In this document: positions 10-55,335 of the stretch, one piece after another
Layout: each line of letters opens with the position of its first letter
How positions within the stretch are numbered: position 1 is the first letter of the stretch
Origin: a virus
Taxonomy: Duplodnaviria > Heunggongvirae > Uroviricota > Caudoviricetes
IMG/VR virus record: IMGVR_UViG_3300045972_000219
Length of the DNA stretch: 64,000 bases
Direction: 5' to 3' (one strand)
Notes under the pieces: generated by a model
The model's input: only the letters and a program-made list of their open reading frames with translations
Database searches by the model: none
Told to the model about the DNA's origin: nothing
Translations under genes and position numbers: made by a program

Positions 10-465
10 TTACAATAGTCTATTTAGAGTTTTACCATTATCATTCAAAAGATAAGTTTCACAATCAGTAAATATATGATGCTTAACTCCATCCATGATA
101 CATGTAATAGCTAACATTAAACATCCATCTTTATTAGGTTCAATACTACTATCTGTAATAACTGGACCTTGCTTTGTTTCAGTATAGTATGGTGGTTCTC
201 CACGCTGAAAAAGAACAGAGTCTAAATTTCCTAAATAAATATCACTAACTGGTACAATACTATTTAGTAAACTAATCCAATTTTCTCCTTCTGGAAGGAT
301 AGAAGTTACTGGAAGTTTAGCATCTAAAGCCATTTCATCTATTCTTACAACTGTATATCCAAGTCTTCCTGCTAATAGAAATTCATTAACTGTCTCTACT
401 TCAGGTTGAGAAATACCATCAATATACTTCCAAGTATTCCATCCATTATGAAATTTCAAAATCAT
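10..465 (-). CDS. hypothetical protein (151 aa)
   Basis: Intact ORF at the left edge, divergent from the plus-strand arm. No recognisable motif. Confidence 0.45.
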   Translation of the reverse strand: MILKFHNGWNTWKYIDGISQPEVETVNEFLLAGRLGYTVVRIDEMALDAKLPVTSILPEGENWISLLNSIVPVSDIYLGNLDSVLFQRGEPPYYTETKQGPVITDSSIEPNKDGCLMLAITCIMDGVKHHIFTDCETYLLNDNGKTLNRLL

Positions 466-1759: not shown

Positions 1760-4216
1760 ATGTCAGTAAAAGTAACAGACTTCTGCGATGTAATGTCTGA
1801 TAGCTTTTTGAAGTATGCATTCAGTGTAGTTATCGGACGTTCAATTCCTGATTTTAGAGATGGCTTAAAGCCAGTACATCGTAGAGTGCTTCAATCATGT
1901 AATGTTGAAGGGATACGTAGTACTTCGCCATGTAAGAAAGCTGCACGACTTGTAGGTGCATGTCTTGGTAGATTTCACCCACATGGAGATGCATCTGTAT
2001 ATGATGCAGCTATTCGTTTAGCTCAACCATGGAAAATGAATGTACCTCTTATGGATTCACAAGGTAATATAGGGTCTATTCATGGAGACAGCTCTGCGGC
2101 GATGAGATATGTGGAGATGCGATCAGCTGCAGTGTGTGAGTATATCTTTAAAGATCTTAAGAAAGAAACTGTACCTTGGTCTCCTACTTATGATTCTTCA
2201 GATGTTGAACCCATGCTGCTCCCTATCCATTTCCCTAATCTCCTGATCAATGGTGCATCAGGTATGGCAGTAGGATATGCAACAGATATTCCTCCTCATA
2301 ATCCGAAGGAGGCTATTGATGCATGTCTACTCTTACTGAAGAAACCTGACGCTACTTTAGATGAAGTAATGAAGGTTATTCCCTCACCAGATTTTCCAAC
2401 AGGAGGACTAATTATTAATCCTTCTGAAATACGTAATGCCTATGCCACTGGTAAAGGTAATCTCCGTGTGAGAGCACCTTATGAAGTGAAAGATCGTAGT
2501 AGAGGTGCATCAAGTATTATTTATAAGACAATCCCATATGGTACATCTACAGATAAGATACGTGAGAAGGTTGCTGAATTAGCAAAGGATAAACGTATTC
2601 AAGTTACTGACTGTAGGGATGAGTCTGATAAGAAAAATTATAGACTCGTTGTAGATGTACCTAATGGTGTATCGCCTGAAACAACTGCAGCATTATTGTA
2701 TCAGCTCACTCCATTGGAATCAACTGTTAAGATTAATCTTAATGGTATTATCAATGATGGAATTAAGCAAGTAGGTATTATTGAAATGCTTAATATCTTT
2801 CTTGAGTTCCGTAGAGGAGTAGTAATTAATCGTACATCATATGAACTCCGTGAGTTTAAATCACGAAAGCATATTGTTGAAGGATTAATCAAGTCATGTA
2901 AAGGTATTGATGAAGTTATCAAGATTGTACGTGCTGCTGAATCAAAGGATGCTGCATCAGTTAAACTTCAAGAGAAGTTTGAATTAACTGAAAGGCAAGC
3001 TGAAGCAGTTCTTGCAATGCGTATCAGTCAGCTGACTAAGCTGAATATCAATCAGTTGAAGGAAGAGAATACCAGTCTTGAGTCTTCAATTAATCAACGT
3101 ATTGATATTTTAAAGACAAAAGAGTATGTAGATGATATCATTTCAGATGAATTGAAAGCTGCATCTAATTCTCTTAAACGTCTTAGACTTACTGAAGTAT
3201 CTTCAGTAGACGTTAAGAAGACTGTTGGTGATGAAGCGTTAGCTGTAACTATTGTTGAAGAAGATGTTGTTATTACAATATCCACACAGGGTTATCTGAA
3301 GCGTATTCCTCAATCAGCATTTACATCACAGGGTCGTGGTGGTAAAGGTCGTAAAGGAATGAAGGCAAGAAAAGATGATATGATTGAGAGGATTCTACAG
3401 TGTTCTTCTCATGATGACTTACTATTATTCACTGATACAGGACGTGTCTTTAGTTCTAAGGCATTCCGTATCCCTGAGTCTACTCCTGATAAAGTAGGTT
3501 CACATGCATCAGCTTTCCTTGCTATGAAAGATGGGGAGAAAGTAGTTGAAGTAATTCCTGTTAAGAAGCTTGGAAAGAAAGATTCAGTCATTATTTGTAC
3601 TGCAAATAATAAGATTAAGAGAACTGCAGCAGAGGAATATACTGATATTCGTCCTTCCGGTGTTATTGCAATTAAGCTAGAAGATAAGGATAAGATTCTT
3701 TCTGCATTTGTCGGAAGGGATGCTGATGAAGTATTTGTAGGTACTAGTGAAGGTAAGAGTTTACGATTTCCTGTAGCAAATATTAATCCAACTAATCGTA
3801 CTACGATGGGCGTAATGGCAATTAATGTAGCTAAAGGTGAAAAGATTGTAAACTGTACAATAGTACCTAAAAAGACTACATGTCAAGTCATAGCAATATC
3901 CAATGAAGGCAATGGTAAGAAAATGGATATTGAAGATTTCCCAACTGCTTCTCGTGGTTGTAAGGGTGTTCTCGCTATGTCCCGTAGACCAAATACTAAG
4001 ATGGTTTATCTCGGTACTGCTTCCGATGAAGATAAAGGTTTAATTATCACAACATCAGAAGGAATTTGTATCAGAATTCGCCTTGAAGATGTTGCATCTT
4101 TAAAACGTGTGACTAAAGGTAGTCGTCTCATTAGACTTACTGAAGGTGACTCTATTATGTCAGTTACTACAACAACTGACGAAATAGAGACAGATGTTGA
4201 GGAAGGTGAAGAATGA
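1760..4216 (+). CDS. gyrA: DNA gyrase subunit A (type IIA topoisomerase A subunit), full length with C-terminal beta-pinwheel domain
   Basis: N-terminal region GRSIPDFRDGLKPVHRRVL...HPHGDASVYDA is the canonical GyrA/ParC breakage-reunion domain with the catalytic Tyr region. QGRGGKGRKG matches the GyrA-box (QRRGGKG) that distinguishes GyrA from ParC. RBS AAAAGGAGTAATTATG. Confidence 0.88.
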   Translation: MSVKVTDFCDVMSDSFLKYAFSVVIGRSIPDFRDGLKPVHRRVLQSCNVEGIRSTSPCKKAARLVGACLGRFHPHGDASVYDAAIRLAQPWKMNVPLMDSQGNIGSIHGDSSAAMRYVEMRSAAVCEYIFKDLKKETVPWSPTYDSSDVEPMLLPIHFPNLLINGASGMAVGYATDIPPHNPKEAIDACLLLLKKPDATLDEVMKVIPSPDFPTGGLIINPSEIRNAYATGKGNLRVRAPYEVKDRSRGASSIIYKTIPYGTSTDKIREKVAELAKDKRIQVTDCRDESDKKNYRLVVDVPNGVSPETTAALLYQLTPLESTVKINLNGIINDGIKQVGIIEMLNIFLEFRRGVVINRTSYELREFKSRKHIVEGLIKSCKGIDEVIKIVRAAESKDAASVKLQEKFELTERQAEAVLAMRISQLTKLNINQLKEENTSLESSINQRIDILKTKEYVDDIISDELKAASNSLKRLRLTEVSSVDVKKTVGDEALAVTIVEEDVVITISTQGYLKRIPQSAFTSQGRGGKGRKGMKARKDDMIERILQCSSHDDLLLFTDTGRVFSSKAFRIPESTPDKVGSHASAFLAMKDGEKVVEVIPVKKLGKKDSVIICTANNKIKRTAAEEYTDIRPSGVIAIKLEDKDKILSAFVGRDADEVFVGTSEGKSLRFPVANINPTNRTTMGVMAINVAKGEKIVNCTIVPKKTTCQVIAISNEGNGKKMDIEDFPTASRGCKGVLAMSRRPNTKMVYLGTASDEDKGLIITTSEGICIRIRLEDVASLKRVTKGSRLIRLTEGDSIMSVTTTTDEIETDVEEGEE

Positions 4217-11036: not shown

Positions 11037-11044
11037 TGTATATT

Positions 11045-14680: not shown

Positions 14681-15039
14681 GATGTGCTTTTTGTGGAAGA
14701 GAAGGGGCTACCGATTGTGGTAGCCTCACCTTTCAGTGTGAAGGAGAGTGTGATGAGACAACACTCTGTATAGATGAGAAAATGATTAGATGTAGAGAAC
14801 AAGCATATAAAGAAATTATTAGATCTAATCCTTTAGTCTATAATACTTTAAGAGCTGGTGGAACTGATGTAGATGTAATAATTAGTCTTGTAAAAGAGAA
14901 TGAAGATTACAAGAATAGACTTCTTAAAAATTATACAGAAAATCCATGTAGAACCATCATATTCAAAGGAGATTTAAATGCAAGAGCCATTGATACAATT
15001 GAAGGAAATAATTTGGGAGATAACGACAAATTGCAATAA
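14677..15039 (+). CDS. Cys-rich protein (120 aa)
   Basis: N-terminal CAFCG..CGS..CEGEC..C cluster. 3' end overlaps the next gene by about 60 nt. Confidence 0.45.
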   Translation: MRCAFCGREGATDCGSLTFQCEGECDETTLCIDEKMIRCREQAYKEIIRSNPLVYNTLRAGGTDVDVIISLVKENEDYKNRLLKNYTENPCRTIIFKGDLNARAIDTIEGNNLGDNDKLQ

Positions 15040-16033
15040 TGGGTGTAATTATTGCGGTAGTAAAGATATCCTAAACAATGATGCACCTAATAGAATTCAG
15101 ACTATCTGTGATGAGATAGCTGAATATGTTGCAACTGTTGAAGGAACTGTCTCTATCGACATCTCAGGTGGAGATCCGTTATCTTGTTTCTATGCCGATC
15201 ATCAGTATATAATAGATGTAATGCCAGAGAATGTTCGTCTTAAGATACTCGTTAATCCTTTATCATTTTCTAAAGTTGAGATGAGTTCATGGATCAACAT
15301 CCTTAAGATGTACTATTGGGTTGGGATTAGTGTCAATACTATTGAAGAACTTAATGCTCTTAAATACTATTGGCATATGTTTAAGGCTAATGAAGTCAAT
15401 GTAACGATTATCTCTAATTTCTCCCGAGACAATATCTGGCATTATGATGATATTGAATCATTTGTTATTGGCGATCATCCAATTGATGAAGATCAATTAA
15501 CTTGGCAAATTCAATACACAATGGGTGATAACTCCACTGCAATCTATACTAATTCAGATGCACTTAGTATGTTCTTTAACAAGATTACAAACTCTTTTAA
15601 TAATGGTCGTAAATTAGTAATTGCAGATAATATGAATGAAGGAGAATGTTCTGCAGGTAAATATTCTTTAGGTATCCTTCAAAATGGAGATGTAGTTGCA
15701 TGTCTTTCCATGAGAAGTTGGGGTACTCCTGAATCTATGGGTAATATATTAGATACTAAACTATCTACTATATGGGAAAATAACTTTGGGTACTTTAGGA
15801 CACAATCATTTAAGTGCTGTAAAGACGTTTGTAATGCACCCTACTGTGCTGAAACTAAATCAAGATCTATGATGGATATGCTCACTAATCCTAGAGTTCC
15901 AAATCCTAAACCAAAACCATTCACACCACTTCCTGGAATGACTTGTGTATATGGAGTAACCACTAATCCATTATATCCAGGTAATGTATTTGTGTATGGT
16001 GTTGCAACAGACGGTCCAATTCTAAATAAATAG
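14978..16033 (+). CDS. radical SAM enzyme with SPASM/twitch-like C-terminal Cys cluster
   Basis: CNNGCNYCG is a Cx3Cx2C motif. SGGDPL glycine-rich SAM motif. C-terminal region has at least 7 Cys (CSAG...ACLSM...CC..C..C). RBS AAAGGAGATTTAAATG. Confidence 0.7.
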   Translation: MQEPLIQLKEIIWEITTNCNNGCNYCGSKDILNNDAPNRIQTICDEIAEYVATVEGTVSIDISGGDPLSCFYADHQYIIDVMPENVRLKILVNPLSFSKVEMSSWINILKMYYWVGISVNTIEELNALKYYWHMFKANEVNVTIISNFSRDNIWHYDDIESFVIGDHPIDEDQLTWQIQYTMGDNSTAIYTNSDALSMFFNKITNSFNNGRKLVIADNMNEGECSAGKYSLGILQNGDVVACLSMRSWGTPESMGNILDTKLSTIWENNFGYFRTQSFKCCKDVCNAPYCAETKSRSMMDMLTNPRVPNPKPKPFTPLPGMTCVYGVTTNPLYPGNVFVYGVATDGPILNK

Positions 16034-17470: not shown

Positions 17471-17673
17471 TGGAATTCTTTATACTTGTTAGAAGAAAGA
17501 AAGGTCTCCATTATATTCAAGGTAATCTTTACTGGAAAGGACTGGACTCGGTTGAAGATATTCTGAACTGTACTAGATTTGATACAAAGAAAGAGGCTGA
17601 AGAATTCATTACTGAACGATTATATGGTTATGGACTCAAGATTAAGAAAGTTACATTAACATTGGAGGGATAA
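17470..17673 (+). CDS. hypothetical protein (67 aa)
   Basis: ORF track. Confidence 0.45.
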   Translation: MEFFILVRRKKGLHYIQGNLYWKGLDSVEDILNCTRFDTKKEAEEFITERLYGYGLKIKKVTLTLEG

Positions 17674-19757
17674 TGGGTATCAAGGCAGATCGTCTCAAGC
17701 TTAAAGGAACTGCTGCTCATTGGGTTAATCGTAATGAGGGTAGTCCTAGTTTCAACTTCCAGAAATATCTATGCTCCGAAAAGCCCTTAAAAGATCTGAG
17801 GGATGATGTAGAGAAACTCTGTAAGAAGCTTCTCAAAGTCAAATATAGCGTTACGACAATGATGCCATATATCAATAGGTACTTATACTCCGATAGAGTA
17901 CCTGGAGACTGGCAGCTACAAAGGGTAATTGAATATGCAAGGACTAATCCTGAACAGTCTAATGCAACTCTAATCGAGGCAGTAAATAAAGACCGTAAAA
18001 AGATTATGGATGAATGGATTGAATATCTTTATACTGTTAATGAAGAATACAAGATGGATCCATTCTTTCGTTTCTTTGTAATGTCAGCTATCCTTGACGA
18101 TCTTAAAGATGGAGAGCCTTCAGTTCCCCCAACATTAGATGCTGCAGCTCTATCAATGGTTTATAGTGATATCGACAAGCATCCAGAACACCAGTCATTT
18201 AGTAAATTATACTCTAAGTTTGGTATTGTAATTGCCACAGATCGTGCCAAAAATAGCGGTAATAACTTCGAGATGGCAAGTGGAGGTACTTGGATTAAAG
18301 TACCGAGAACATATAAAAGTGACCCAATGTGGAAGATTAACTATGAGCAGGTAAGATTGATCTCTCACAGTAAATGGTGTACTGCAGGTACAGCCGCAGA
18401 ATCATATCTCCCAAGAGGAGATTTTTGGGTATTCCATGAGCATGGTGGAGCTAAACTTGCCATACGTTTTGAAGGAGATAACGTTGGTGAGATACAAGGC
18501 CCACAAAATAATGGAGTTATTCCTGCATCTCATGCAGATAAAGTTGAAGAACTAGTCTTATCAAAGGGAATTAATCTTAATGATCAACAGACCCTTCAGC
18601 TAGCTATTGTATTAGAGCAAGGAGATGAAGGCTCTCTCAACTATGAAGGAATCAAATTTAATTTTGACGACTGTATTAAAATGAATGCTAAGGGTACTAC
18701 TTATCTACAAAATTATGTAGAAGGTAAAGTTAATAGTTCTAATGAGAAGAACTATGCTAATCATTACCATGTTCAAAATATGGGGAGCAACAAAGTAAAG
18801 GCAATGGCAGAGGGATATATAGTTGTATCTGGAATGTCTAGTGGGAGAGGTAAACCACCTAGAATTTATATTCATCCAGATAATACTTCATTTACCATCA
18901 TTCAGAATATGAATAAAAATCTCTTTTACTTATCTAAATGTGATCATCGTGTCATAATGATGCTTGCATTATTAGGTAATCAAGATGCAATTGATTTACT
19001 TAGAGATAGTCTAAGAGAAAATAGAAATCGTTATCATACTTTTGAGGAAGCTATAATTGCTCATGTAAATATTAGTGATAAATTGACTGATATTTTAGAT
19101 AATACTGATCTTAATGAATTAATTATTCCTAAGTACATAGTATCTAAACCATCTAGAATACCTAAGAGTAAATACATTTATGGAGCCACTCCTACACCAA
19201 TGGTATATCAAGTTAAAGGTTTAGATGATAATATGGAGATTCATTATGATGAAGAATTTTCACGAAGTAATTGGGATAGGTTAGATATTAAAATTGATGG
19301 ATTAATTGCAGGATATTTAGCTATTCGATGGGATGATGTATATTTCAATAATCCCAATATATCTACTGATAAAAAAAGAAATTTACTTAAATTTGTAAAG
19401 CAAATACACATAGAACTTAAGGATATAGAATTTAGTGATTATGATATAAATACTTATAGGATAGGTGATGATTACCAAAGTCATTATTTTGAAAAGATTT
19501 ATAGAGTGCCTTGGAAAGGTAAATGGGGTGGATTTAGAGTAGATGGTAGTCCGGTAAAAGAATACGACTGGAGTGATAGATATAAGCATTTTAATATTCT
19601 CCATAAACAAATGGATACTATTAAACAACGTGTACCTAAAGTTACTGAAGTAGATCCGTTCATTCCTAAACCCCTTCCAACAGCTAAGGATATTAAAAGA
19701 ATGTCTTTAGGTTTAGAAAAAGTTACTAAACGTTACAAAACACTATTGGAGGTATAA
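17673..19757 (+). CDS. large hypothetical protein (694 aa)
   Basis: Long intact ORF; I recognise no catalytic motif. Confidence 0.6.
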   Translation: MGIKADRLKLKGTAAHWVNRNEGSPSFNFQKYLCSEKPLKDLRDDVEKLCKKLLKVKYSVTTMMPYINRYLYSDRVPGDWQLQRVIEYARTNPEQSNATLIEAVNKDRKKIMDEWIEYLYTVNEEYKMDPFFRFFVMSAILDDLKDGEPSVPPTLDAAALSMVYSDIDKHPEHQSFSKLYSKFGIVIATDRAKNSGNNFEMASGGTWIKVPRTYKSDPMWKINYEQVRLISHSKWCTAGTAAESYLPRGDFWVFHEHGGAKLAIRFEGDNVGEIQGPQNNGVIPASHADKVEELVLSKGINLNDQQTLQLAIVLEQGDEGSLNYEGIKFNFDDCIKMNAKGTTYLQNYVEGKVNSSNEKNYANHYHVQNMGSNKVKAMAEGYIVVSGMSSGRGKPPRIYIHPDNTSFTIIQNMNKNLFYLSKCDHRVIMMLALLGNQDAIDLLRDSLRENRNRYHTFEEAIIAHVNISDKLTDILDNTDLNELIIPKYIVSKPSRIPKSKYIYGATPTPMVYQVKGLDDNMEIHYDEEFSRSNWDRLDIKIDGLIAGYLAIRWDDVYFNNPNISTDKKRNLLKFVKQIHIELKDIEFSDYDINTYRIGDDYQSHYFEKIYRVPWKGKWGGFRVDGSPVKEYDWSDRYKHFNILHKQMDTIKQRVPKVTEVDPFIPKPLPTAKDIKRMSLGLEKVTKRYKTLLEV

Positions 19758-20762: not shown

Positions 20763-20799
20763 TACTACACTGGACTCAGTCAGTCCAGTGTAGTAATAA
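20763..20799 (+). promoter_or_regulatory. 16-bp perfect hairpin without U-tract (ATTACTACACTGGACT-CAGTC-AGTCCAGTGTAGTAAT)
   Basis: Perfect inverted repeat ending at the RBS of the next gene. It could be a processing or attenuation site. Confidence 0.4.
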
Positions 20800-21149
20800 T
20801 GAGGTATATTATGTTTTTACAAGAAATGTCAACAATAGGAGTATACGATAATCATAAGATTACTGTATATGAAGAACCATTTGCAAATCCTAGCTTTCAT
20901 GTAAGATATAAAGATGAGTGGGAAGTAATTCTGCAGATTAAAGACTTTGAAATTTTAGAAAAGAAATTTGGTAAGTATGAGAAAGGTACCCATCTACCAA
21001 AAAAAGAGATAAAAGAGTTAGTTAATTACCTTCAGCAAAATAATAAATTTCTTAAAAATAATACTAATTGGGAGTATTTAATTACAACATGGAATACAAA
21101 TAATCCTAGATATGAAGTTAGTATTGATTTCAAAATACCAATTCAATGA
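20799..21149 (+). CDS. hypothetical protein, paralog A of a duplicated 115-aa family
   Basis: About 55% identical to 23119..23466 (shared VGVYD.HK.TVYEE...NPSFH..YK.EWE..LQI.DF). Lies directly upstream of the tmRNA. Confidence 0.55.
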   Translation: MRYIMFLQEMSTIGVYDNHKITVYEEPFANPSFHVRYKDEWEVILQIKDFEILEKKFGKYEKGTHLPKKEIKELVNYLQQNNKFLKNNTNWEYLITTWNTNNPRYEVSIDFKIPIQ

Positions 21150-21152: not shown

Positions 21153-21570
21153 GGGGGTGAACTAGTTTCGACGGGGGACTAATAGTTATAAACACGCTCA
21201 GAGGTTTCTCGTTGGCCTCTTTAAACTACGAGAACACAATTAATTGCCAACGCTATTAATGCAGTACGTAACTTCTTTGCAGCAGACAACTATGCCTTTG
21301 CAGGTGTAGCAGCTGCTTAAGAAGTAAAAATTCCTACAGCTTAATCGTAGGTGGGGTAGAGAGTAGAGAGCGACCTTGTAACTCTTCACCCATCAACAGA
21401 AGAAACAATTAGGAAGAAATTAGTTTGACTGATACTAATCAACAACAGTCTAGAGTCCAATCCGATTTGCCTTTTTGGGATACAGCTCGAAACACTAAAC
21501 AGGCTATGAGCGTACATGTTGTAATGAAAGGTTTTTCGGACCCGAGTGGCAGTACTCGGCACCTCCACCA
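21153..21570 (+). ncRNA. ssrA: tmRNA (SsrA-like transfer-messenger RNA), phage-encoded
   Basis: The 5' end GGGGGTGAACTAGTTTCGACGGGGG matches the tmRNA 5' consensus (E. coli GGGGCUGAUUCUGGAUUCGACGGG). The 3' end CACCTCC-A-CCA pairs with the 5' 7-mer and includes a G3:U70 wobble, the Ala identity element. TTTCGGAC precedes the T-arm as in E. coli. Internal tag ORF 21279-21320 GCAGCAGACAACTATGCCTTTGCAGGTGTAGCAGCTGCTTAA encodes AADNYAFAGVAAA-stop. The T-loop is non-canonical (CCGAG-TGGCAGTA-CTCGG). Confidence 0.7.
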
Positions 21571-22612
21571 AATTTAAGATAAGGGAAAACCTACTTGATA
21601 GGTAATGGTTAAATTGGACTCCGAGGGTTAATTTCTCTCTAGTAATACCAGTCCTACCTTATCTTAATCCTTCTATTCCTTCCACCACGGAGAAATCTAC
21701 ATCTCCACTAGATTGTAGAACGGTCTAAAAGCTTAATGTGAGTTTGATCACTCAACGAGAGCTTAATAGCATAGGGGTTCTGGAGGCTTTTATGCTGGCG
21801 GAAGGAAATCAATTTGGGCATCACTGACGAAAGCTGCTCTATCCGTTTTACTTTAAAGGTTTTGATGCATGCATCTTTATCTTTCTAAAGTAAAGCCTGA
21901 TAGAACCAGTTCGTAAACGCATGCCAAGTCAATGGGCTTATTAATTTAAGCCCATTGGCGGTACTAATTTGTCGGTAAGGGCTTAAGCCACCCTTACAAA
22001 TTCCGTGTCCTACCTCTCGATATAGGATTACGTTGGTATAGTGTTAACCTTGCCAGTAGCAAGCATTTAATGATCGTCTGATCTGAGGATGTAAGACTTG
22101 TGAATCGTGCTGGTTGAACTCGATAGGACTTAGCTCCGCTATACAAGGTTCAAGAGGAGAGATTACTTCAAACTATCTTGATAAATCGAATCGAAGAAGT
22201 CCAAGAGAGATATTCTCCTTGGCCTCAGTCTATAATTTATTATAGACAATCAGTCCCACTATCAACTATAGGTAGGGGAGTCATGCTAACTGACAACTGA
22301 TGAGCCTATTGCCGTTAGATAGAGAAAAGTGGAGGGACGAAAGACTATATGTCATTTATATCCCGTAGAAGCGCACCTAATTGTGGTTGACTATAAAAAC
22401 TTATCAGTAAATTCAAGTCAAGATAAGAAATCACAATACAATAGGTTAAGTCTCTAGGCAAGTTGGAGCTAGTCCAGACATAAAGATGTAGAGCGACTTA
22501 GGACTCTACAAGCTATTCGAGAAAGAGATGCTATCGGATAGAAGTCATGAATACTTAAGGGGGTATGGCCGTATACCCATCATCTCCGGCCAATAAATTA
22601 TAGGAGACCATA
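21571..22612 (+). ncRNA. candidate large structured ncRNA (about 1040 nt ORF-free, GC-elevated) directly 3' of the tmRNA
   Basis: No ORF of 60 aa or more in six frames. GC is higher than in flanking coding DNA. Many local hairpins. Ends at the RBS of ORF 22613. Confidence 0.3.
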
Positions 22613-22816
22613 ATGGTTAGAATTCTTCCAATAGGGACTAGAGTTAAAATCATTATGAACTTATATAATAGTGATGAGACTCATATAGTTGTAGAGAAAG
22701 GTACATTAGCAACTGTCATTGATAACGTGGAAGATGAAGGAATTAATGTCCATGTTGATGACACAGTATTCACTAATATGGCTTTATGTGATTGGGAGTA
22801 TGAGGTTATACAATGA
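22613..22816 (+). CDS. hypothetical protein (67 aa)
   Basis: RBS TAGGAGACCATAATG. Confidence 0.45.
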   Translation: MVRILPIGTRVKIIMNLYNSDETHIVVEKGTLATVIDNVEDEGINVHVDDTVFTNMALCDWEYEVIQ

Positions 22817-23118: not shown

Positions 23119-23466
23119 ATGGTACAGCCAATATTTCTAACAGAAATGGCTACTGTAGGTGTATACGATAGTCATAAAGTAACAGTGTACGAAGAAACTT
23201 TAGGTAATCCATCATTTCATATCAAATATAAAAATGAATGGGAAATAGTATTGCAAATCAGAGACTTTGTAATTTTAGAAGTTAAACATGGTAATTTTAA
23301 AAAAGGTGATAAATTTCCTAGAAAAGAATATAAGGATCTAATTAAATTTCTCAATTCTAATGATGAGGATCTAAATATTAGTAATTGGAAATATTTAATT
23401 GATGCATGGAATAGAAATAATCCTAAATATAAAATATCTACAAGCACACAACTACCAATTTATTAA
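23119..23466 (+). CDS. hypothetical protein, paralog B of the 115-aa family
   Basis: See 20799..21149. RBS AAAGGAAAATTTATG. Confidence 0.55.
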   Translation: MVQPIFLTEMATVGVYDSHKVTVYEETLGNPSFHIKYKNEWEIVLQIRDFVILEVKHGNFKKGDKFPRKEYKDLIKFLNSNDEDLNISNWKYLIDAWNRNNPKYKISTSTQLPIY

Positions 23467-23508: not shown

Positions 23509-24027
23509 GTGGCTGTAAAAATTAGTGGAGGAAATATGGGAAGTAAACTAACATGGAATGTTAAAATCCTTCCAAAGATTGTTGAAAAGTCATTTTCAGT
23601 TGATTCAGTTCTAAAACAATTAGATCTTAAATTAACTGGAGGAAATAGAGAAACTGTTAAGCGTTACATTAATTCTATGAATCTAGATACATCTCATTTT
23701 ACAGGTCAAGGACATCGTAAGGGTATAGTCGGTCAGCCTTTATATATTGGGATGACACTAGATGAAATAATGATAAGAGATAGCACCTACACTAATACTC
23801 ACAGACTAAAGCTTCGCATGATCAAAGAAGGTCTACGTGATCATAAATGTGAGAAGTGTGGTTTAAATGAATGGGTAGGAAAACCTATACCACTTGAGTT
23901 ACATCATAAAAATGATATAAGAAATGATCATCGTAATAAAAATATCGAATTAATATGCCCTAATTGTCATGCACTCACAGATAATTACAGAGCTAAAAAT
24001 ATAGATATTAAATATAGATCAGCTTAA
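23509..24027 (+). CDS. HNH endonuclease (free-standing homing-endonuclease-like)
   Basis: CEKCG...ELHHKNDIRNDHRNKNIELICPNCH is a canonical HNH motif with a zinc-finger cysteine pair. Likely start at the internal ATG (about 23536) with RBS GGAGGAAATATG. Confidence 0.75.
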   Translation: MAVKISGGNMGSKLTWNVKILPKIVEKSFSVDSVLKQLDLKLTGGNRETVKRYINSMNLDTSHFTGQGHRKGIVGQPLYIGMTLDEIMIRDSTYTNTHRLKLRMIKEGLRDHKCEKCGLNEWVGKPIPLELHHKNDIRNDHRNKNIELICPNCHALTDNYRAKNIDIKYRSA

Positions 24028-24031: not shown

Positions 24032-24116
24032 GCTTGTGTGGTGGAATTGGTATACACAAGGCACTTAAAATGCCTCGGCTTTAGCCATAGCAGTTCGAGT
24101 CTGCTCACAAGCACCA
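24032..24116 (+). tRNA. tRNA-Leu (anticodon TAA), class II
   Basis: Acceptor GCTTGTG / CACAAGC; anticodon stem AGGCA / TGCCT with loop CTTAAAA; variable arm about 13 nt; T-arm AGCAG-TTCGAGT-CTGCT; encoded CCA. Starts 5 nt after the HNH stop. Confidence 0.75.
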
Positions 24117-24133: not shown

Positions 24134-24328
24134 ATGCAACCACATCAAGAAAGAGTAGTTCAAGAGAAAGAGGAACTTGATAAAAAAGCTAATGCATTAA
24201 GTGATTTTATAGGGAATAGTCCAATTTTCGAAACAATTGATCCTGAAGAACAAGAACGACTTAAAGAACAAAATGATATCATGTGGCAATACTCTGAAGT
24301 ACTTGGTAAGCGTATTGCAGCTTTCTAA
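24134..24328 (+). CDS. hypothetical protein (64 aa)
   Basis: RBS AAAAGGAGGTTCTAATG. Confidence 0.5.
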   Translation: MQPHQERVVQEKEELDKKANALSDFIGNSPIFETIDPEEQERLKEQNDIMWQYSEVLGKRIAAF

Positions 24329-24329: not shown

Positions 24330-24895
24330 GTAATCTAAAAACAGCCTATAAGATTCTTAGGGACGGTTAAGCCACGTAGGATACAGTCTCATGAACTGTA
24401 CTCTGAAGGGATAACTCCATGATTACAGTAGATGTTTACCACTACTTGCCAGATAAACAATAGGTTATTGCAACGTATTGCTGGAGAGGTAATAAGCTAA
24501 CTAGATAGGTCTATGCATGGATGCTATCTAGTGACGTCGAAATAAGAAGGTTATTCTAGATAGTCCTTCTTAGCGGTAAACACTTTAAACAAATTAATGT
24601 GTGGGTGACAAGCGGAATTGTTTAAACGTCTCTTCAGAGCAAGGAGAGGCCCACACATTTAATATGAAAGATTGATCTTGATATCCAACTTCTAACGGTA
24701 CAATTCCGTTGATGGTACCAATAAGGCAATGTATTAGACTGCAATCTAATCGAAGCCAAATGGTTGCCCTTGCAGGGGAGAAGTGTGAAAGAGAGAATTA
24801 GTTGCGGGAGACAATCTGCGGACTGTCAAACAGATGCATTTTCTATGACACGGAAGTGTGGATATCAAGATGAATGTTCCATATAAAAGGAGAAA
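24330..24895 (+). ncRNA. candidate structured ncRNA region (about 570 nt ORF-free)
   Basis: No ORF on the plus strand. GC-elevated. Only an overlapping minus-strand ORF (24746..25033), which is probably spurious. Confidence 0.25.
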
Positions 24896-24899
24896 TGTT

Positions 24900-25001
24900 A
24901 TGAAGTGTGGAATAACTAAAGAGAAGATGTATTGCATTACATGTAAACAAGTAGTAGATGGAACAAGTGGTATTTGTCCTAATTGTGGAGCAGCTATATA
25001 A
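24900..25001 (+). CDS. zinc-ribbon mini-protein (33 aa, MKCGITKEKMYCITCKQVVDGTSGICPNCGAAI)
   Basis: Strong RBS AAAAGGAGAAATGTTATG. CxxC...CxxC motif. Embedded between two ORF-free regions. Confidence 0.4.
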   Translation: MKCGITKEKMYCITCKQVVDGTSGICPNCGAAI

Positions 25002-25029
25002 AACCGTATTTGAATATTACGAATATTCT

Positions 25030-26183
25030 TCAATAAAAAATTATTAACATAAAATTACATAACTCAGATTGACCCATGAGTACGGTTTTCTTTCGGGAAG
25101 ACAGTGCAATAATGGGGTGTCATGGGGGGGCAGGTTTCATGTCCTCGTTGGAGGTAAACCAACGGAAGAATAACTCTAGTAATAGAGATAAAAGATTTCT
25201 ATGATCCATAAGTAGAGTCTGGTGAGAAATATGCTATCCATTGTGAATGCACTCACTTCAATTGAAAACCATTAATACACAATATTCTTGGGCGGAGGAA
25301 ACCCTAAAGGCTTCCAAAGAGAATATTACTTGGTATGAAGGTCGCATACTGAGTTGAGTCGAAAGACAATAGAATGTATTAATGCTTGTAATGTGCAATG
25401 GACTAGTCATCCGGAGTGCGTACATGAGTTATCGGTTATCCCTATTGCGTTTGCCAAAGCGCACCTAGATTGGCATCTAGGTCAAGAAATTGGTGGGAAA
25501 TGACTAAATACAGTAAGTATCCTTGACAGGAGAAAACAGAAGGGTGACGCATCTAAACTACTCAAAAGGTAGCATGATGACAACGTCAACCTCATCCTTC
25601 ATCAAACGACTAATGGATAAATTCTATTATAATCATTGGATCTGAAATCCAAACTATATGAGATGATATCTATAAAAGCAAAAGTGTTGACGGCATTTGA
25701 ACTAAAATGAACTTATTCCTCTGTAATATGGGGATATCTGAAAGTACCGCAAGGAAATCAGATAAGAAGAAACGAGTAACATTGACCTAACAGGTGGGAA
25801 CCTGTGAACTCTGCCAAGAGAGGATGTGTGAAAGAAGTAATCTATACAGTCAGATGCAGAAGAGTTGCAAGACTCTAAAACTTGTGTTCATGGATGCTAC
25901 TATCTTGAAAGGGATAGTGTGTAAAGAGTTTCGAAAGAAATTTTAACGTATCCATTACGGGTCAATTTACTCAGCCCAACAATTAATAATCGCCTTATTC
26001 CCCTCCATAGGAATAAGGCGATTTATTAAATCTCCTTTCCACCGTAGATTAATGGGAGATGAGCACTCATGTAGAGCATGCTACCTTTATGGTCACAATG
26101 CATGTACTAAGTCTGGCAATCTCGATGTGATCCCGACTCTCGCTCACAAGTGGATGGACATCCACTATAAATAACGTCTAAAT
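25030..26183 (+). ncRNA. candidate large structured ncRNA (about 1150 nt ORF-free, GC-elevated) ending at a terminator
   Basis: No ORF in any frame. GC is markedly above the genome average. Ends with an intrinsic terminator at 26184-26230. Confidence 0.3.
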
Positions 26184-26230
26184 TAACCCTTATTCCTTAA
26201 TTGGAAAAAGGGTTAATTTTTTTTTTTTAC
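26184..26230 (+). terminator. rho-independent terminator (TTAACCCTTATTCC-TTAATT-GGAAAAAGGGTTAA plus T11)
   Basis: Hairpin with the same CC-TTAATT-GG loop as the terminators at 16354 and 26975, followed by 11 T. Confidence 0.75.
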
Positions 26231-26308
26231 CGCATTATTAAATAATATATATGTATATTAATATAGTATAAGAAGTTCAAATTCGATGTATAAAAAAAGG
26301 AGAAACAA

Positions 26309-26971
26309 ATGAAAACGACAGTATGGATGATCATTCTAATTATTATGATTGGACTGATGGGATGTAAGACTGAGGACAAGTTTTCAGGAAAGTACGGTTC
26401 TAGTGATGTCGCACTAACGATTGAGAAGAATGAGAATGTTAAAGATGAATACAAATTCACATTTTCAGGCAGTCCGATGTTTGGTGAGTTTGATGTACTT
26501 GTCAATGTGAAAACAGATGGAACTGCACATTACGTTATGAAAGATCATTACATAATTGACAGTGGAAAAGAGACTAAGAATAAATGTGAACTTGATATCA
26601 AGTTCTTCAATGACACAGTAACAATAAAAGAAGAGCCATGCGGTATATACACAGTTGATGGTGTATATAAAAAAGAAAACGTCCAATCATCAAATGCTCA
26701 GACAGCGAATACAGTTAAACCAGTAGCTAAAACAGAAGCTCCAAAGAGCACTGAAGTTGAACAGAAGATCATATTTCAAACCAACAGTATACAGTATGAT
26801 AAATCTGTATACAATCCAGCAGTAGAGTGTAACAGAGAGTGTAACAAAGTATCCGAAAAAGTAGTAGATTATACATCACAAGGATGGAAAGTAGTTTCTT
26901 CAGTACCACGTACGCAAGCAGTTGCTACATGGTGTAAATGTGACGGAGTTGAGTATATAGTATCGAAATGA
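26309..26971 (+). CDS. secreted lipoprotein (220 aa)
   Basis: Signal peptide with lipobox LMGC. RBS AAAAAGGAGAAACAAATG. Last gene of the plus-strand arm. Confidence 0.55.
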   Translation: MKTTVWMIILIIMIGLMGCKTEDKFSGKYGSSDVALTIEKNENVKDEYKFTFSGSPMFGEFDVLVNVKTDGTAHYVMKDHYIIDSGKETKNKCELDIKFFNDTVTIKEEPCGIYTVDGVYKKENVQSSNAQTANTVKPVAKTEAPKSTEVEQKIIFQTNSIQYDKSVYNPAVECNRECNKVSEKVVDYTSQGWKVVSSVPRTQAVATWCKCDGVEYIVSK

Positions 26972-26974
26972 AAA

Positions 26975-27017
26975 TAACCCTCATTCCTTAATTGGAATGA
27001 GGGTTATTTTTTTTTTA
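26975..27017. terminator. bidirectional intrinsic terminator at the convergence of the plus and minus arms
   Basis: ATAACCCTCATTCC-TTAATT-GGAATGAGGGTTAT is a 14-bp stem flanked by AAAA on the left and T9 on the right. The stop codon of minus-strand ORF 27015..27266 lies in the T-run. Confidence 0.7.
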
Positions 27018-27266
27018 GATTTTAGTATGACATCCCTTACACATTGTTGGACCAGATGTTTTAGCATGACATCCTTTACACTCTTTATGAGCATAATTCT
27101 TTCCAATACCATCAATTTTACCAACTCTTAGTATATGGCATGCGTTACATTTATTAGCTGTTGCGTGTGTTGTATGATTAAAACTAACATCTTTACCCAA
27201 CTTAATAATCTCTGATGCATATACTGATTGGCTAACGAGTACAATCATTAAAATTAAAATCTTCAT
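27015..27266 (-). CDS. triheme cytochrome c7-family protein (PpcA-like periplasmic c-type cytochrome)
   Basis: Signal peptide MKILILMIVLVSQSVYASE. Three CxxCH haem-binding motifs (CNACH, CKGCH, CKGCH) in a mature domain of about 66 aa. From memory, the motif spacing aligns with Geobacter PpcA (V.F.H..H...C..CH...GKI.G.GK..AH..CKGCH....GPT.C..CH.K). Confidence 0.7.
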   Translation of the reverse strand: MKILILMIVLVSQSVYASEIIKLGKDVSFNHTTHATANKCNACHILRVGKIDGIGKNYAHKECKGCHAKTSGPTMCKGCHTKI

Positions 27267-27436
27267 TGATATTCCTTCTATACCACAGGTGGGTATTTTT
27301 GTAATAGTGATTTATCTATGTGTATCTTACAAATAAAATGACGCTTACCAAAGGCAAACATTCTAACTAGGTCTTCTCTGGGTTTCATTTCATTACATTG
27401 GATGCATTTGAAGTGAGTCAATTTAGGCATAACAAA

Positions 27437-28138
27437 TTACCCCTTGATGTATCTAATAAAGCCTACTACTTGAAACGTCTTACCTATATCCAGTTTTCTA
27501 GTCCTTCGATAAACTCCGTCTCCTTCTCTTTGACTTCCTTTAGCTCCTGGACCTGTGTTACCTTCTATGTCGTCAAATTCATTTTTAGCTATTTGCCTTT
27601 CAATAGTTCCACCATGTCCAGCAAAATTACCAGTAGCTTCCCCATGTGCCCAAATAGCTATATCTCCTAAGGCTAAGTTTTCTATACCAAGAAATACTCT
27701 ATTGGCAGGAATAACTTTATATGCAAATGGATTCTTTTGGCAGGCTTTATATAATAGACTAGCTCTAGCTAACTTAGGAAATACATCTGGTTGCTTTGTT
27801 TTCTCTGCAGCTATATGATAATTATAGAGAGCAAAAGCCACACAGTACGGATTTCCTTTAGGAAGTCCTACATATCTAAGAAATGTTTCTACTTCTGGTC
27901 CATCGTTATTACCTGTTTTTTCTTGTGTTCCGATATATTTTCTAGCATTTCCAACTGCTATTTCTTGAAGAGTAGTAACTCTTTTAGGTTCTTCTTTTTT
28001 AACTATAGCAGTTGGTATATGACAGTCAATACATTTAGCTATTGACAGTGATGGAAATAGAGCAAGCGAGAATAAACATACCAAGATATACTGCAGCGGC
28101 AATATTCCCTTCAACAAAGATCTCTCTAAGAACGTCAT
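27437..28138 (-). CDS. secreted CHAP/NlpC-P60-like cysteine peptidase (putative cell-wall hydrolase or endolysin) with N-terminal CxxCH motif
   Basis: N-terminal hydrophobic signal or anchor, then KCIDCH (CxxCH). Catalytic-type Cys in GNPYCVAFALYNYH and His in AIWAHGEATGNFAGHGGTIE at CHAP-like spacing. Confidence 0.5.
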   Translation of the reverse strand: MTFLERSLLKGILPLQYILVCLFSLALFPSLSIAKCIDCHIPTAIVKKEEPKRVTTLQEIAVGNARKYIGTQEKTGNNDGPEVETFLRYVGLPKGNPYCVAFALYNYHIAAEKTKQPDVFPKLARASLLYKACQKNPFAYKVIPANRVFLGIENLALGDIAIWAHGEATGNFAGHGGTIERQIAKNEFDDIEGNTGPGAKGSQREGDGVYRRTRKLDIGKTFQVVGFIRYIKG

Positions 28139-54960: not shown

Positions 54961-55335
54961 ATTTTTCAGCTTGCAAAACTATCTCAGGGATTGCAGATTC
55001 TAATGCTTTCCTACTTTCATGGAAGCCATCGAGAGTTTTGATTAGTGCTCGACCTCCCATGTAATGCCAGTCCATACGTAAACCTTTCTGGCATGCCACA
55101 CTGACAATTGCTTCTAAAATATAAGGGATTCCAACAGCTGTTGCTATTACTTCCCCATTCTTATATACATCCCAATTACAACATGAAATATCCTCTTCTA
55201 GAGTCTTAACCTTAGGGTAACAGACAGGATTTTGTCTTAGACTAATTATATCAGTCTTAAGACGTTGATCTAGATAACATCGAGCTAAGTTACTTGCATC
55301 TTGGTTTCTTAAAGCTAGCTCATAAGCTTCTTCAT
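54961..55335 (-). other. frameshifted extra copy of the C-terminal repeat domain of the 708-aa protein (about 125 codons, open but without start codon)
   Basis: Immediately 3' of the stop of 55315..57441, in the -1 frame. Nucleotide repeat of 55531-55590 at 55311-55375 with a 1-nt deletion. Conceptual translation INHEEAYELALRNQDASNLARCYLDQ... is paralogous to the in-frame INHEEAYQLALVKQEESNLSRCYLDM... Confidence 0.5.

Follow-up and report, generated by a model that had tools for sequence, protein, structure and literature searches.

A complete one-piece tmRNA gene with a rare matched change of D-loop and T-loop in a jumbo phage distantly related to AR9/PBS1

We identified a complete, one-piece tmRNA (ssrA-like) gene in a 64,000-nt stretch of DNA (the window) from the virus record IMGVR_UViG_3300045972_000219 (Caudoviricetes). 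The element that hosts it is a jumbo phage, at least 171 kb in size and a distant relative of AR9/PBS1. Given its homology, intact elements, phage context and the joint change of two loops, the gene at 21153..21570 is probably a functional one-piece tmRNA gene of this phage; its expression, processing, charging, SmpB partner and benefit to the phage are predictions from sequence. The presence of tmRNA in phages is already known. This copy has a rare, matched change of two loops that hides it from the standard tmRNA finder.

Identification of the tmRNA gene

The gene is as follows:

21153..21570, + strand: complete one-piece tmRNA (ssrA-like) gene, 418 nt, with encoded 3' CCA (Rfam RF00023, identical assemblies, folding z-score -3.2)

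A covariance-model search with RF00023 returns exactly these coordinates, with 104.3 bits (gathering score 47) and E 1.1e-39, and the alignment spans model positions 1-374 of 374 without truncation. This agreement is far beyond chance and bears out the proposal of a first-pass annotation of this DNA that a full-length tmRNA gene is present. The same annotation placed a tmRNA-like 5' end right after the ORF at 20799..21149, and indeed the stop codon TGA is followed by ttt and then by GGGGGTGAACTAGTTTCGACGGGGG from 21153. The order of elements in the RF00023 alignment is standard and collinear, and not that of a two-piece (permuted) gene. Contigs from four SRA/JGI samples carry the 418 nt with 100% identity to the window (five assemblies in all), which rules out assembly error as the origin of the sequence.

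ARAGORN, which had been suggested as a further check, calls no tmRNA at 21153..21570 at any threshold when given the native sequence. A lone permuted call at -ps70 is on the reverse strand and is spurious. Changing TGG to TTC in the T-loop, with no other edit, makes the program call a standard tmRNA with the same coordinates. Because editing loop positions 2-3 to TC restores detection, the failure is due to the non-canonical T-loop alone.

A structured stretch of about 1 kb, 21571..22560, lies directly after the tmRNA and shows no sequence similarity to the GOLLD-like region of the window. As group I introns interrupt the T-loops of some tmRNAs (PMC11915505), we considered such an intron in view of this stretch. 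We rejected it since the T-arm runs on into the 3' strand of the acceptor stem without interruption, with a loop just 1 nt over consensus. Even at E values up to 10, 21560..22640 has no match to any Rfam family, whether group I intron or other.

Genomic context

Among the jumbo-phage genes of the window is one for a virion structural protein that resembles its counterparts in PBS1/AR9/phiR1-37. Others encode a split RNA polymerase beta subunit of the phiKZ/AR9 type, a Dda-like helicase and the head maturation protease discussed below. The tmRNA gene is located within a cluster of RNA genes that includes tRNAs at 11044, 12460 and 24032 and a GOLLD-like RNA.

Integration into ssrA is common, and the 3' ends of tmRNA genes are frequent attachment sites. 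The gene could thus be a host ssrA at the edge of a prophage, or be joined to phage sequence in a chimeric assembly, and not be encoded by the phage. Some IMG/VR loci fit such an origin: 85 of 117 matches to canonical tmRNA 3' ends have no matching 5' end within the fetched stretch, and such 3'-only matches resemble att-site fragments or cut loci. The gene described here, however, is full length and has more than 20 kb of the window on each side of it, with phage genes on both flanks and uniform base composition (GC 0.31-0.38). No integrase or smpB was found near it. The same junctions occur in five assemblies, and the same tmRNA gene is present on contigs of 61 kb and 171 kb. We therefore regard a prophage-edge or chimeric origin as extremely improbable.

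Lacking in the 64-kb window is a gene for SmpB (tblastn with the SmpB encoded beside a bacterial tmRNA described below, L011, gave only noise at E > 1). None was found either in the ~6 kb past the window end (L155), where genes for tail and PAAR-like proteins are located.

The first-pass annotation took the ClpP-family protease at 59649..60254, together with the tmRNA, as a sign that the phage manipulates ribosome rescue or tag-directed proteolysis. We do not support this. The ClpP-fold ORF matches head maturation protease families (phrog_94, E 2e-37), and the best of its full-length matches in phages carry the annotation capsid maturation protease. It is located 38 kb from the tmRNA gene on the opposite strand. 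We assign the protease to capsid maturation and see no link between it and the tag. An ORF of 708 aa near the protease has no match in the phage records; thus, the head-module context is only partly documented.

The tRNA-like domain

The following elements form the tRNA-like domain:

21153..21159, + strand: acceptor stem, 5' strand GGGGGUG, pairing with 21560..21566, with G3 (21155) opposite U70 (21564)
21160..21172, + strand: D-loop analogue AACUAGUUUCGAC, with UAG at 21163..21165 where the consensus has uGG (Rfam alignment)
21173..21199, + strand: helix H2, 5' strand, pairing with about 21508..21537 (Rfam consensus structure and inspection)
21542..21559, + strand: T-arm, with stem CCGAG (21542..21546) paired to CUCGG (21555..21559) and loop UGGCAGUA (21547..21554) (sequence, RF00023 and fold)
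21560..21570, + strand: acceptor stem, 3' strand CACCUCC, followed by the discriminator A (21567) and CCA (21568..21570) (sequence, RF00023 alignment and comparison within the variant class described below)

The acceptor stem has 7 bp and carries the alanine identity pair G3:U70 along with A73 and the 3' CCA. Pairing of CACCTCC-A-CCA (21560..21570) with the 5' 7-mer, G3:U70 included, had been proposed at first pass and holds, with the U at 21564. All seven acceptor pairs also form in four distinct variant-class sequences, in which pair 3 is always G:U. Helix H2 includes ACGCUC (21194..21199) paired with GAGCGU (21508..21513). It begins with four G:U pairs in succession, a feature that we count against a functional reading. 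Also in agreement with the earlier annotation, TTTCGGAC stands before the T-arm as in E. coli tmRNA; the same holds for a fetched E. coli-type control (L048).

The canonical T-loop of tmRNA is the site of m5U and pseudouridine, and the elbow is the part bound by SmpB. Here the 5-bp T-stem is formed, and two of its pairs show compensatory changes across the variant-class tmRNAs. The T-loop, already recognized as non-canonical at first pass, is the 8-nt UGGCAGUA and not the canonical 7-nt UUCRANY. Positions 1 and 5 (U and A) are retained, and positions 2-3 are GG instead of UC. An alternative fold of the T-arm has a 7-bp stem and a GCAG loop. The conserved GG of the D-loop, which makes contact with the T-loop, is also changed, to AG.

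The mRNA-like domain and pseudoknots

Between the two strands of H2, the following elements were identified:

21200..21234, + strand: pseudoknot PK1, with stem 1 AGAGG (21200..21204) paired to CCUCU (21216..21220) and stem 2 UUCUCGU (21206..21212) paired to ACGAGAA (21228..21234)
21235..21245, + strand: single-stranded spacer of 11 nt, CACAAUUAAUU, with the frame-setting UAAUU at its end (aligned to the equally long consensus AAAAAAUAAuU)
21246..21320, + strand: tag reading frame, with resume codon GCC at 21246, 24 codons (ANAINAVRNFFAADNYAFAGVAAA) and stop UAA at 21318..21320 (RF00023, ARAGORN on the edited sequence and inspection)
21279..21316, + strand: candidate helix-5-like hairpin (MFE and centroid fold and inspection of a single sequence, with no comparative support)
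21321..21507, + strand: region of the expected PK2-PK4, where the Rfam alignment is of low posterior probability and lacks several consensus pairs

Of the two PK1 stems, stem 2 belongs to the Rfam consensus structure; the counterpart of stem 1 in the alignment is the consensus GAGG/CCUC. The resume codon GCC (Ala) follows 11 nt past PK1 with UAAUU just before it, as in the Rfam consensus, and the resume-consensus window of ARAGORN falls on the same spacer after the T-loop edit. The frame is open throughout its 24 codons. The encoded peptide contains AANAINAVR, has ...NFFAADNYAFAGVAAA as its C-terminal part and ends in ...GVAAA, with the stop UAA directly after these residues.

A 13-codon tag had been proposed at 21279-21320. 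The frame does read AADNYAFAGVAAA followed by the stop, but this is only the C-terminal part of the 24-residue tag, which starts 33 nt upstream. The stretch first taken as the whole tag is the one that can form the candidate hairpin at 21279..21316, with outer stem GCAGC/GCUGC and inner stem CUAUGCC/GGUGUAG, ending 1 nt before the stop codon.

Known tags range from 8 to 35 residues (PMC3968760), so that a tag of 24 residues falls inside this range. The tag is absent from the built-in list of known tags in ARAGORN ('Tag not identified'). ClpX of E. coli recognises LAA (PMC3968760). As the phage tag ends in VAAA and not LAA, efficient proteolysis is not assured.

Folding of PK1 to PK4, which the earlier annotation had put forward as evidence to be sought, gives a mixed result. 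Both stems of PK1 form. PK4 is the best supported of the downstream pseudoknots, as a hairpin at about 21453..21487 with its loop GCCU (21469..21472) paired to AGGC (21501..21504) at the consensus GuC/GAC positions. Candidates for PK2 and PK3, from a crude enumeration of H-type pseudoknots in a single sequence with no homologues for covariation, are no better than those of shuffled sequence. The enumeration extended each stem to the maximum and missed even PK1; it was dropped as evidence.

The same elbow in bacterial tmRNAs

Pattern scans for the variant loop constrained the T-arm and the 3' strand of the acceptor stem only and left the D-loop free. Four real tmRNAs other than the phage gene were recovered in this way, with the loop UGGCAGUG: L011, L033, L021 and L022, of which the last two are near-identical. 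L011, found in a Symbiobacteriaceae MAG (DATGYC010000041, 3724..4103, 178 bits), is located directly 3' of rnr and smpB. L033 and L021/L022 are metagenomic (122-124 bits) and represent two uncultured bacterial lineages, and L033 and L021 adjoin uvrC and other cellular genes. The position of ssrA beside rnr-smpB is the usual chromosomal arrangement. Most matches to these patterns arose by chance and lie outside any tmRNA (14 of 15 in the species-genome scan), with 12 of 15 also due to chance in the metagenome scan. For the TTCGGAC-type pattern, there is about 1 real case across 185,579 species genomes.

Although the D-loop was free to vary, all five tmRNAs with the T-loop UGGCAGUR (the phage gene and the four others) have YAG in the D-loop, whereas GG stands there in each of the 32 control tmRNAs (23 distinct) whose T-loop is canonical. 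Every acceptor and T-stem position is paired in all four distinct sequences of the variant class, with three compensatory double changes. As with the phage gene, ARAGORN misses every tmRNA with the variant elbow until two bases are edited. From these sequences, the T-loop UGGCAGUA and the D-loop UAG look like two halves of a single alternative elbow design that change together.

The resemblance to L011 extends to the 5' end (GGGGGYGAA..AGUUUCGACGGGGGA), PK1 (UGGCCUC.UUAAAC), the resume site UUGCCAAC and UUUCGGAC before the T-arm, and the pairing of T-loop UGGCAGUR with D-loop YAG is common to L011, L033, L021 and L022. The bacterial genes differ in that they are cellular, belong to high-GC genomes and are located next to rnr-smpB or uvrC. 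They encode short tags of ordinary type (ANNNNSVLLAA, ANNEYALAA), whereas that of the phage has 24 residues. The last T-loop base is G and the base before the D-loop AG is C in the bacterial members, as compared to A and U in the phage. The RNA bodies of the bacterial and phage genes are not alignable in detail.

These genes bear on whether the phage took up a host ssrA copy that is now on its way to becoming a pseudogene, with the odd loops and poor PK2-PK4 as early decay and trans-translation lost. The lack of an ARAGORN call at any threshold, the change of two of the most conserved loop motifs of tmRNA, the low posterior probability in the middle of the Rfam alignment and the lack of a conserved relative showing selection would all fit decay. 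However, both loop changes co-occur in chromosomal ssrA genes, one of them right after smpB, and these are presumably the sole tmRNAs of their genomes. Two random matches on exactly the same loop pair are very unlikely, given the single real case or so in 185,579 species genomes. The tRNA-like domain keeps all its helices, PK1, the resume context and the 24-codon frame are likewise intact, and the poorly matched part is the one that is variable and replaceable in tmRNAs (PMC3968760). Since the same loop pair is found in chromosomal ssrA with compensating T-stem changes, it looks like a rare working variant and not decay, and we consider the pseudogene explanation very improbable. It also follows from the bacterial ssrA genes with this T-loop that the canonical T-loop, which is near-universal, is evidently not obligatory.

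Predicted function

We predict that the gene acts as a tmRNA in the infected cell. It would be transcribed from the + strand, probably on one transcript with the upstream 116-aa ORF, the stop codon of which is only 3 nt away. RNase P would cut at G1, and the 3' end would be trimmed to the encoded CCA. The host alanyl-tRNA synthetase could charge the RNA with alanine via G3:U70 and A73, and SmpB would bind it. With none encoded in the 64 kb, SmpB would have to be supplied by the host or by a phage gene that lies beyond the sequence seen. EF-Tu would bring the tmRNA to ribosomes stalled on broken or stop-less mRNAs, where translation would resume at GCC 21246, append ANAINAVRNFFAADNYAFAGVAAA and end at UAA, freeing the ribosome. 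The Ala-rich C-terminus may mark the tagged product for host proteases. The likely benefit would be that free ribosomes stay steadily available as the phage turns off host transcription and mRNAs are cleaved.

The importance of PK1, the replaceability of PK2-4 and a need for D-loop/T-loop interactions in SmpB binding have been reported for tmRNA (PMC3968760). An altered elbow could change the binding of SmpB, and an RNA with such an elbow, in a phage with no SmpB seen in the 64-kb window, could be a decoy or inhibitor. Its tRNA-like domain might sequester SmpB, AlaRS or EF-Tu, or block stalled ribosomes, and in this way turn off trans-translation by the host. The mycobacteriophage DS6A provides a precedent: as cited in PMC11915505, it has a CDS-less tmRNA that inhibits the host tmRNA. 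By analogy, and so far as that citation goes, both would be phage-borne tmRNA derivatives acting on the trans-translation system of the host. The DS6A RNA is described there as being without a tag reading frame, whereas the present gene keeps a complete mRNA-like domain: PK1, a correctly spaced resume codon, an open frame of 24 codons, an Ala-rich end and a stop codon. We disfavor the decoy because an inhibitor would not need a complete mRNA-like part. As the same elbow is also found in normal tmRNAs of bacteria, we consider a decoy role very improbable, and trans-translation by a functional tmRNA remains the preferred reading.

A more specific form of trans-translation can be envisaged, in which YAG/UGGCAGUR is a distinct, undescribed elbow with a co-adapted SmpB or altered binding that the phage uses for a partly private process. 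The partner may be the SmpB of a host with the same elbow or a phage SmpB encoded elsewhere. The long tag ending in VAAA may fare differently from the host tag, through slower degradation or the action of a different protease. The swap of U/A in the phage for C/G in the bacterial genes may mean that the two loops are in direct Watson-Crick contact. We consider this speculative and rather unlikely.

Comparison with known tmRNAs

As in standard one-piece SsrA (RF00023), the phage gene has the acceptor stem, 5-bp T-stem, a stem-less D-loop ending in UUCGAC, H2, PK1, 11-nt spacer, Ala resume codon, Ala-rich tag end and UAA. It differs from standard SsrA, which has a 7-nt UUCRANY T-loop, GG in the D-loop and a tag of usually ~10 residues in place of 24 ending in VAAA. 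The phage gene is also phage-borne and without an adjacent smpB, and its PK2-PK4 region fits the model poorly.

The first-pass annotation considered a viral tmRNA uncommon, which is correct. Its novelty was overestimated, because phage tmRNAs are well documented: they occur in 402 of 18,146 phage genomes (about 2%) (PMC9004378), huge phages carry tmRNA along with SmpB (PMC7162821), and 79 unique phage tmRNAs are listed in a 2025 tmRNA database (PMC11915505). The present gene resembles these in being a complete ssrA in a large phage genome of lytic type with tRNAs, and the proposed role in sustaining translation is the same. The tmRNAs of marine Melnitz/pelagiphages are two-piece, whereas this one is one-piece. 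It further differs in being invisible to ARAGORN, by which tmRNAs were called in two of the surveys (PMC9004378, PMC7162821); the main candidates of the database were drawn from ARAGORN and BLASTN hits (PMC11915505). Surveys based on ARAGORN thus undercount tmRNAs, as two T-loop bases hide otherwise canonical genes both in this phage and on bacterial chromosomes.

Phages of the AR9/PBS1 kind carry their own RNA polymerases. With this gene, a jumbo phage related to them joins the phages that bring their own ribosome-rescue RNA. This fits the idea that a phage which replaces host transcription also has to provide its own versions of short-lived host RNAs on which translation depends. The joint change of D-loop GG to AG and of T-loop UUC... 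to UGGCAGUR in unrelated tmRNAs is a natural experiment on the elbow, and comparing RNAs of this type and their SmpB partners could reveal which contacts are truly required. If the host shares the rare elbow, the tmRNA could serve as a host marker for this uncultured phage.

Searches for phage relatives

A blastn search with the tmRNA against 50,697 phage records gave no match. Exact and degenerate T-arm patterns identified no tmRNA with this T-loop in IMG/VR; the single pattern match (L003) is not a tmRNA. The neighbouring 694-aa protein, used as a query, recovered no IMG/VR locus, and in the protein collection it matched only itself and one 59% homologue (P0002). Across these searches no divergent phage relative carrying the tmRNA was found. 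Two homologues of the upstream 116-aa ORF (P0004, P0005) are on contigs of ~1 kb, in each of which another ORF follows directly and there is no tmRNA. This is the arrangement of a paralogue of the 116-aa ORF in the window itself, at 23119.

A tmRNA gene in the phage window

The phage encodes an ssrA-like gene of 418 nt that matches the Rfam tmRNA family RF00023 at exactly 21153..21570 (+), over model positions 1-374 of 374 and with 104.3 bits against a gathering score of 47 (E 1.1e-39, Rfam scan of the whole window). The first-pass annotation had placed a tmRNA here, and its landmarks are present: the 5' end GGGGGTGAACTAGTTTCGACGGGGG begins at 21153, 3 bases past the TGA of the ORF at 20799..21149; CACCTCC-A-CCA forms the 3' end, its last base at 21570; and TTTCGGAC lies ahead of the stem-loop CCGAG-TGGCAGTA-CTCGG, in which the loop TGGCAGTA is non-canonical, as had been noted. 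The predicted fold of the RNA is more stable than those of shuffled sequence (z = -3.2) and keeps the acceptor stem and T-arm. All 418 nt agree (100% identity) between the window and contigs of four other samples (SRR35489184, SRR35489367, SRR35489233 and JGI 3300045974), so an assembly artefact is ruled out.

ARAGORN, which had been proposed as a check, makes no tmRNA call at default or relaxed thresholds, and reports only three tRNAs in the window:

11044, tRNA-Asn
12460, tRNA-Leu
24032..24116 (+), tRNA-Leu(UAA)

When two T-loop bases are changed in silico (TGGCAGTA to TTCCAGTA), ARAGORN calls a tmRNA of the standard type at 21153..21570. The T-loop is thus the only anomalous element; all others satisfy the program's rules. 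As a positive control, canonical tmRNAs were detected in 4/4 cases.

A group I intron in the T-loop, known for 883 tmRNA genes (PMC11915505), was considered and rejected: the T-arm is contiguous and 21560..22640 matches no Rfam family at E up to 10.

Anatomy and tag of the phage tmRNA

The elements are listed by RNA position, where position n is window coordinate 21152 + n.

G1-G7 with C408-C414 (+), acceptor stem, then A415 and C416-C417-A418
A8-C20 (+), D-loop analogue, AACUAGUUUCGAC
G21-C47 with 356-385 (+), 5' and 3' strands of helix H2
48-52 with 64-68 (+), PK1 first stem, AGAGG with CCUCU
54-60 with 76-82 (+), PK1 second stem, UUCUCGU with ACGAGAA
83-93 (+), spacer after PK1, 11-nt single strand CACAAUUAAUU
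94-96 (+), window 21246, resume codon GCC (covariance-model alignment and ARAGORN resume-site model)
317-320 with 349-352 (+), PK4, loop GCCU with AGGC, a hairpin-loop pairing at consensus positions

The alanine identity pair of the acceptor stem is G3:U412. Within H2, ACGCUC (42-47) is paired with GAGCGU (356-361), and the base of the helix is a run of four G:U pairs. The spacer equals the Rfam consensus AAAAAAUAAuU in length and shares its final UAAUU. The folding of PK1 to PK4 envisaged at first pass is borne out in part: both stems of PK1 are found and PK4 is recognisable, but PK2 and PK3 are candidate structures only, in a part of the covariance-model alignment with low posterior probability. 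A crude pseudoknot search of the PK2-PK4 region did no better than on shuffled sequence. In E. coli PK2-4 can be replaced, and in two-piece tmRNAs they are reduced (PMC3968760); the poor PK2-PK3 fit thus weakens nothing essential.

The tag frame runs from GCC at 21246 for 24 codons (ANAINAVRNFFAADNYAFAGVAAA) to the stop UAA at 21318..21320. The 13-residue tag first read at 21279..21320 is in the same frame and is the C-terminal part of the 24-residue tag. In the predicted fold a hairpin is possible at 21279..21316, just ahead of the stop codon, at the place expected for helix 5. The tag is long, yet inside the reported range of 8-35 residues (PMC3968760). It is absent from ARAGORN's list of known tags, and it ends in VAAA instead of the LAA bound by E. 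coli ClpX.

A rare elbow with matched D-loop and T-loop

Two pattern scans, both with the 5' end left free, recovered bacterial tmRNAs with a similar T-loop. The first covered one genome per species (185,579 species) with TTCGGAC-N5-TGG-N9/10-CNNCTCCACCA (TGG at T-loop positions 1-3), a pattern whose TTCGGAC prefix is common to about a quarter of distinct control tmRNA 3' ends; 14 of its 15 matches were due to chance and one was a real tmRNA. This locus (L011; 3724..4103, 178 bits), from a Symbiobacteriaceae MAG, has the T-arm GCGGG-UGGCAGUG-CCCGC, nearly the phage loop on another stem, and lies directly 3' of rnr and smpB, as is classic for chromosomal ssrA. The second scan, of metagenomes with GGAC-N5-TGGCAGT-N9-CTCCACCA, gave real tmRNAs in 3/15 matches (122-124 bits), namely L033 and the near-identical L021 and L022, which adjoin uvrC and other cellular genes:

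L033, 5302..5657 (-), tmRNA with variant T-loop and D-loop CAG
L021, 4315..4669, tmRNA with variant T-loop and D-loop CAG
L022, 8788..9142, tmRNA with variant T-loop and D-loop CAG

All four bacterial tmRNA genes, chromosomal ones with L011 included, share the T-loop UGGCAGUG and the D-loop CAG. No tmRNA with a T-loop of the phage type was found in IMG/VR, and the variant elbow (T-loop UGGCAGUR with D-loop YAG) is rare.

D-loop regions of the variant tmRNAs
Phage (window): GAACUAGUUUCGAC
L011: GAACAGUUUCGAC
L033: GAAUCAGCUUCGAC
L021/L022: GAACCAGCUUCGAC

The D-loop reads YAG in 5/5 tmRNAs with the variant T-loop, at a place where the Rfam consensus is GG. For comparison, among the matches listed for canonical-T-loop tmRNA 3' ends from IMG/VR (at least 120 loci), GG was present in 32/32 with a matching 5' end (23 distinct). 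In the four distinct variant sequences pairing is complete in both the acceptor stem (one compensatory change) and the T-stem (two compensatory changes).

In the elbow the D-loop contacts the T-loop, an interaction required for SmpB binding (PMC3968760). Because these interacting loops are changed jointly in unrelated tmRNAs, which presumably include their genome's working copy, the change argues for a rare functional elbow design and against damage. T-loop positions 1 and 5 (U...A) are kept and would correspond to the U54-A58 pair. Loop position 2 is pseudouridylated in E. coli tmRNA; the phage has G there. The phage differs from the bacterial variants at two bases: the one preceding the D-loop AG is U, not C, and the last one of the T-loop is A, not G. 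This difference, of which only two states are seen, fits a Watson-Crick contact between the loops (C:G to U:A) and also an extra T-stem pair (U:G to U:A). No description of this co-varying D-loop/T-loop design was found in the papers searched.

The bacterial variants are likewise missed by ARAGORN, and each is detected after the same two-base edit. The variant elbow thus reveals a blind spot in ARAGORN: where it occurs, genomes annotated by this program alone would seem to be without ssrA.

Proposed function

We consider the phage gene likely to encode a working tmRNA, since all elements of the textbook cycle are kept: the acceptor and T-arm with encoded CCA (substrates of RNase P and 3' trimming), the alanine identity set, the 12-bp acceptor/T stack for EF-Tu, H2, PK1, a resume codon at the proper distance, and a tag frame ending in alanines and then a stop codon. 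With these elements intact, and with bacterial precedents for the D-loop/T-loop pair, it is improbable that the gene is a captured copy in decay. Slightly less probable still is a decoy, as in DS6A, whose CDS-less tmRNA inhibits host tmRNA (PMC11915505); this would leave the retention of the whole mRNA-like domain unexplained.

With a working tmRNA made by the phage, ribosomes that have stalled on cleaved or truncated mRNAs would go on being freed in the course of infection. AR9/phiKZ-type phages supply RNA polymerases of their own, and if host transcription is shut off, host tmRNA would presumably cease to be replenished. Translation-related RNA genes surround the phage tmRNA, and the same ribosome-release role has been proposed for other phage tmRNAs (PMC9004378, PMC7162821). 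SmpB would be supplied by the host or by an unseen part of the phage genome. Among the sequences compared, the Symbiobacteriaceae tmRNA is closest to the phage RNA (in the tRNA-like domain, PK1 and resume region), but its genome is GC-rich, so at most this hints at the type of donor.

Phage tmRNAs are already known from 402 of 18,146 phage genomes (PMC9004378), with huge phages among the carriers (PMC7162821) and 79 unique phage sequences in the 2025 tmRNA database (PMC11915505). The gene itself is thus one more instance of something already known. What goes beyond this is the rare co-varying D-loop/T-loop design, here in a phage, and the long tag is a further difference.

Phage context

By its genes, the window belongs to a jumbo phage. 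A virion structural protein of 833 aa has ~26% identity to those of PBS1, AR9, phiR1-37 and large Staphylococcus and Listeria phages; also encoded are a Dda-like helicase and a split, phiKZ/AR9-like RNA polymerase beta subunit (phrog_2962). The ORF upstream of the tmRNA is present on a 171,491-nt contig, and GC is even across the window (31-38%). The tmRNA lies >20 kb from either window end, and no integrase or smpB was found near it in the window; a host ssrA at a prophage junction, by far the least credible reading, is thus excluded for practical purposes.

The ClpP-fold ORF at 59649..60254, linked at first pass to tag-directed proteolysis as a ClpP-family protease, has matches to families of head maturation proteases (phrog_94, E 2e-37); among phage records, the best of its full-length matches carry the annotation capsid maturation protease. 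We see no reason for such a link.

Other genes of the window include:

1760..4216 (+), full-length GyrA-type topoisomerase subunit (PF00521, E 3e-132)
14978..16033 (+), radical-SAM/SPASM protein
17673..19757 (+), 694-aa ORF without Pfam or PHROG family
55315..57441 (-), 708-aa ORF without Pfam or PHROG family

The first two are auxiliary genes of the large-phage kind. The 708-aa ORF has no tblastn match among 50,697 phage records, and the 694-aa ORF has one homologue only (59% identity) among 5.8 billion clustered proteins; the phage lineage is very sparsely sampled. ORFs are on the + strand up to ~27 kb and on the - strand beyond. Orientation changes at about 26000..27500, where cumulative GC skew peaks, a divergence or convergence point of two large transcription blocks just past the RNA-gene cluster.

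Neighboring RNA-rich stretches

The surroundings of the tmRNA could prove more interesting than the gene. Directly 3' of it, on the same strand, is an ORF-free kilobase (21571..22560, +) with GC of 0.40 (0.33 in the window) and a minimum free energy of -294 kcal/mol versus -246 +/- 9 for shuffles (z = -5.45 on the + strand, -2.37 on the - strand). A long-range stem, AAGAUAAGG/CCUUAUCUU, is at its start. It matches no Rfam family at E up to 10, and it resembles neither the GOLLD-like region nor any other part of the window. We regard it as a candidate large structured RNA of a kind not yet described.

A match to GOLLD RNA (RF02032) at 25539..25977 (+) spans model positions 1-416 of 416 with 80.6 bits (E 3.2e-20), below the gathering score of 150. 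It lies ~1.4 kb downstream of tRNA-Leu(UAA), within an ORF-poor stretch (24340..26300) of raised GC (0.37 vs 0.33), and has the look of a diverged giant RNA of the GOLLD type, carried by a jumbo phage. The ~1.2 kb preceding the match possibly form the variable 5' half of this RNA. Between tRNA-Leu and this region is a 64-aa ORF (24134..24328, +) of the crAss001_48-related protein family (PF21825, E 1.7e-20), labelled 'Sequestin' in the contig annotation.

The ORFs at 20799..21149 (+) and 23119..23466 (+) are paralogous (116 and 115 aa, 55% identical, E 2e-48), and both have weak, sub-threshold DUF4160 matches. Each is followed by a tRNA-like gene and, beyond it, by a stretch poor in ORFs and rich in RNA: the former precedes the tmRNA and the 1-kb structured region, the latter an HNH gene, tRNA-Leu and the GOLLD-like region. 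Their relatives P0004 and P0005, homologues of the 116-aa ORF with 50-54% identity, are on contigs of ~1 kb. The HNH endonuclease (23509..24027, +; phrog_10822, E 4e-42) ends 4 nt before tRNA-Leu(UAA) and could be a homing-endonuclease insertion beside an RNA gene.
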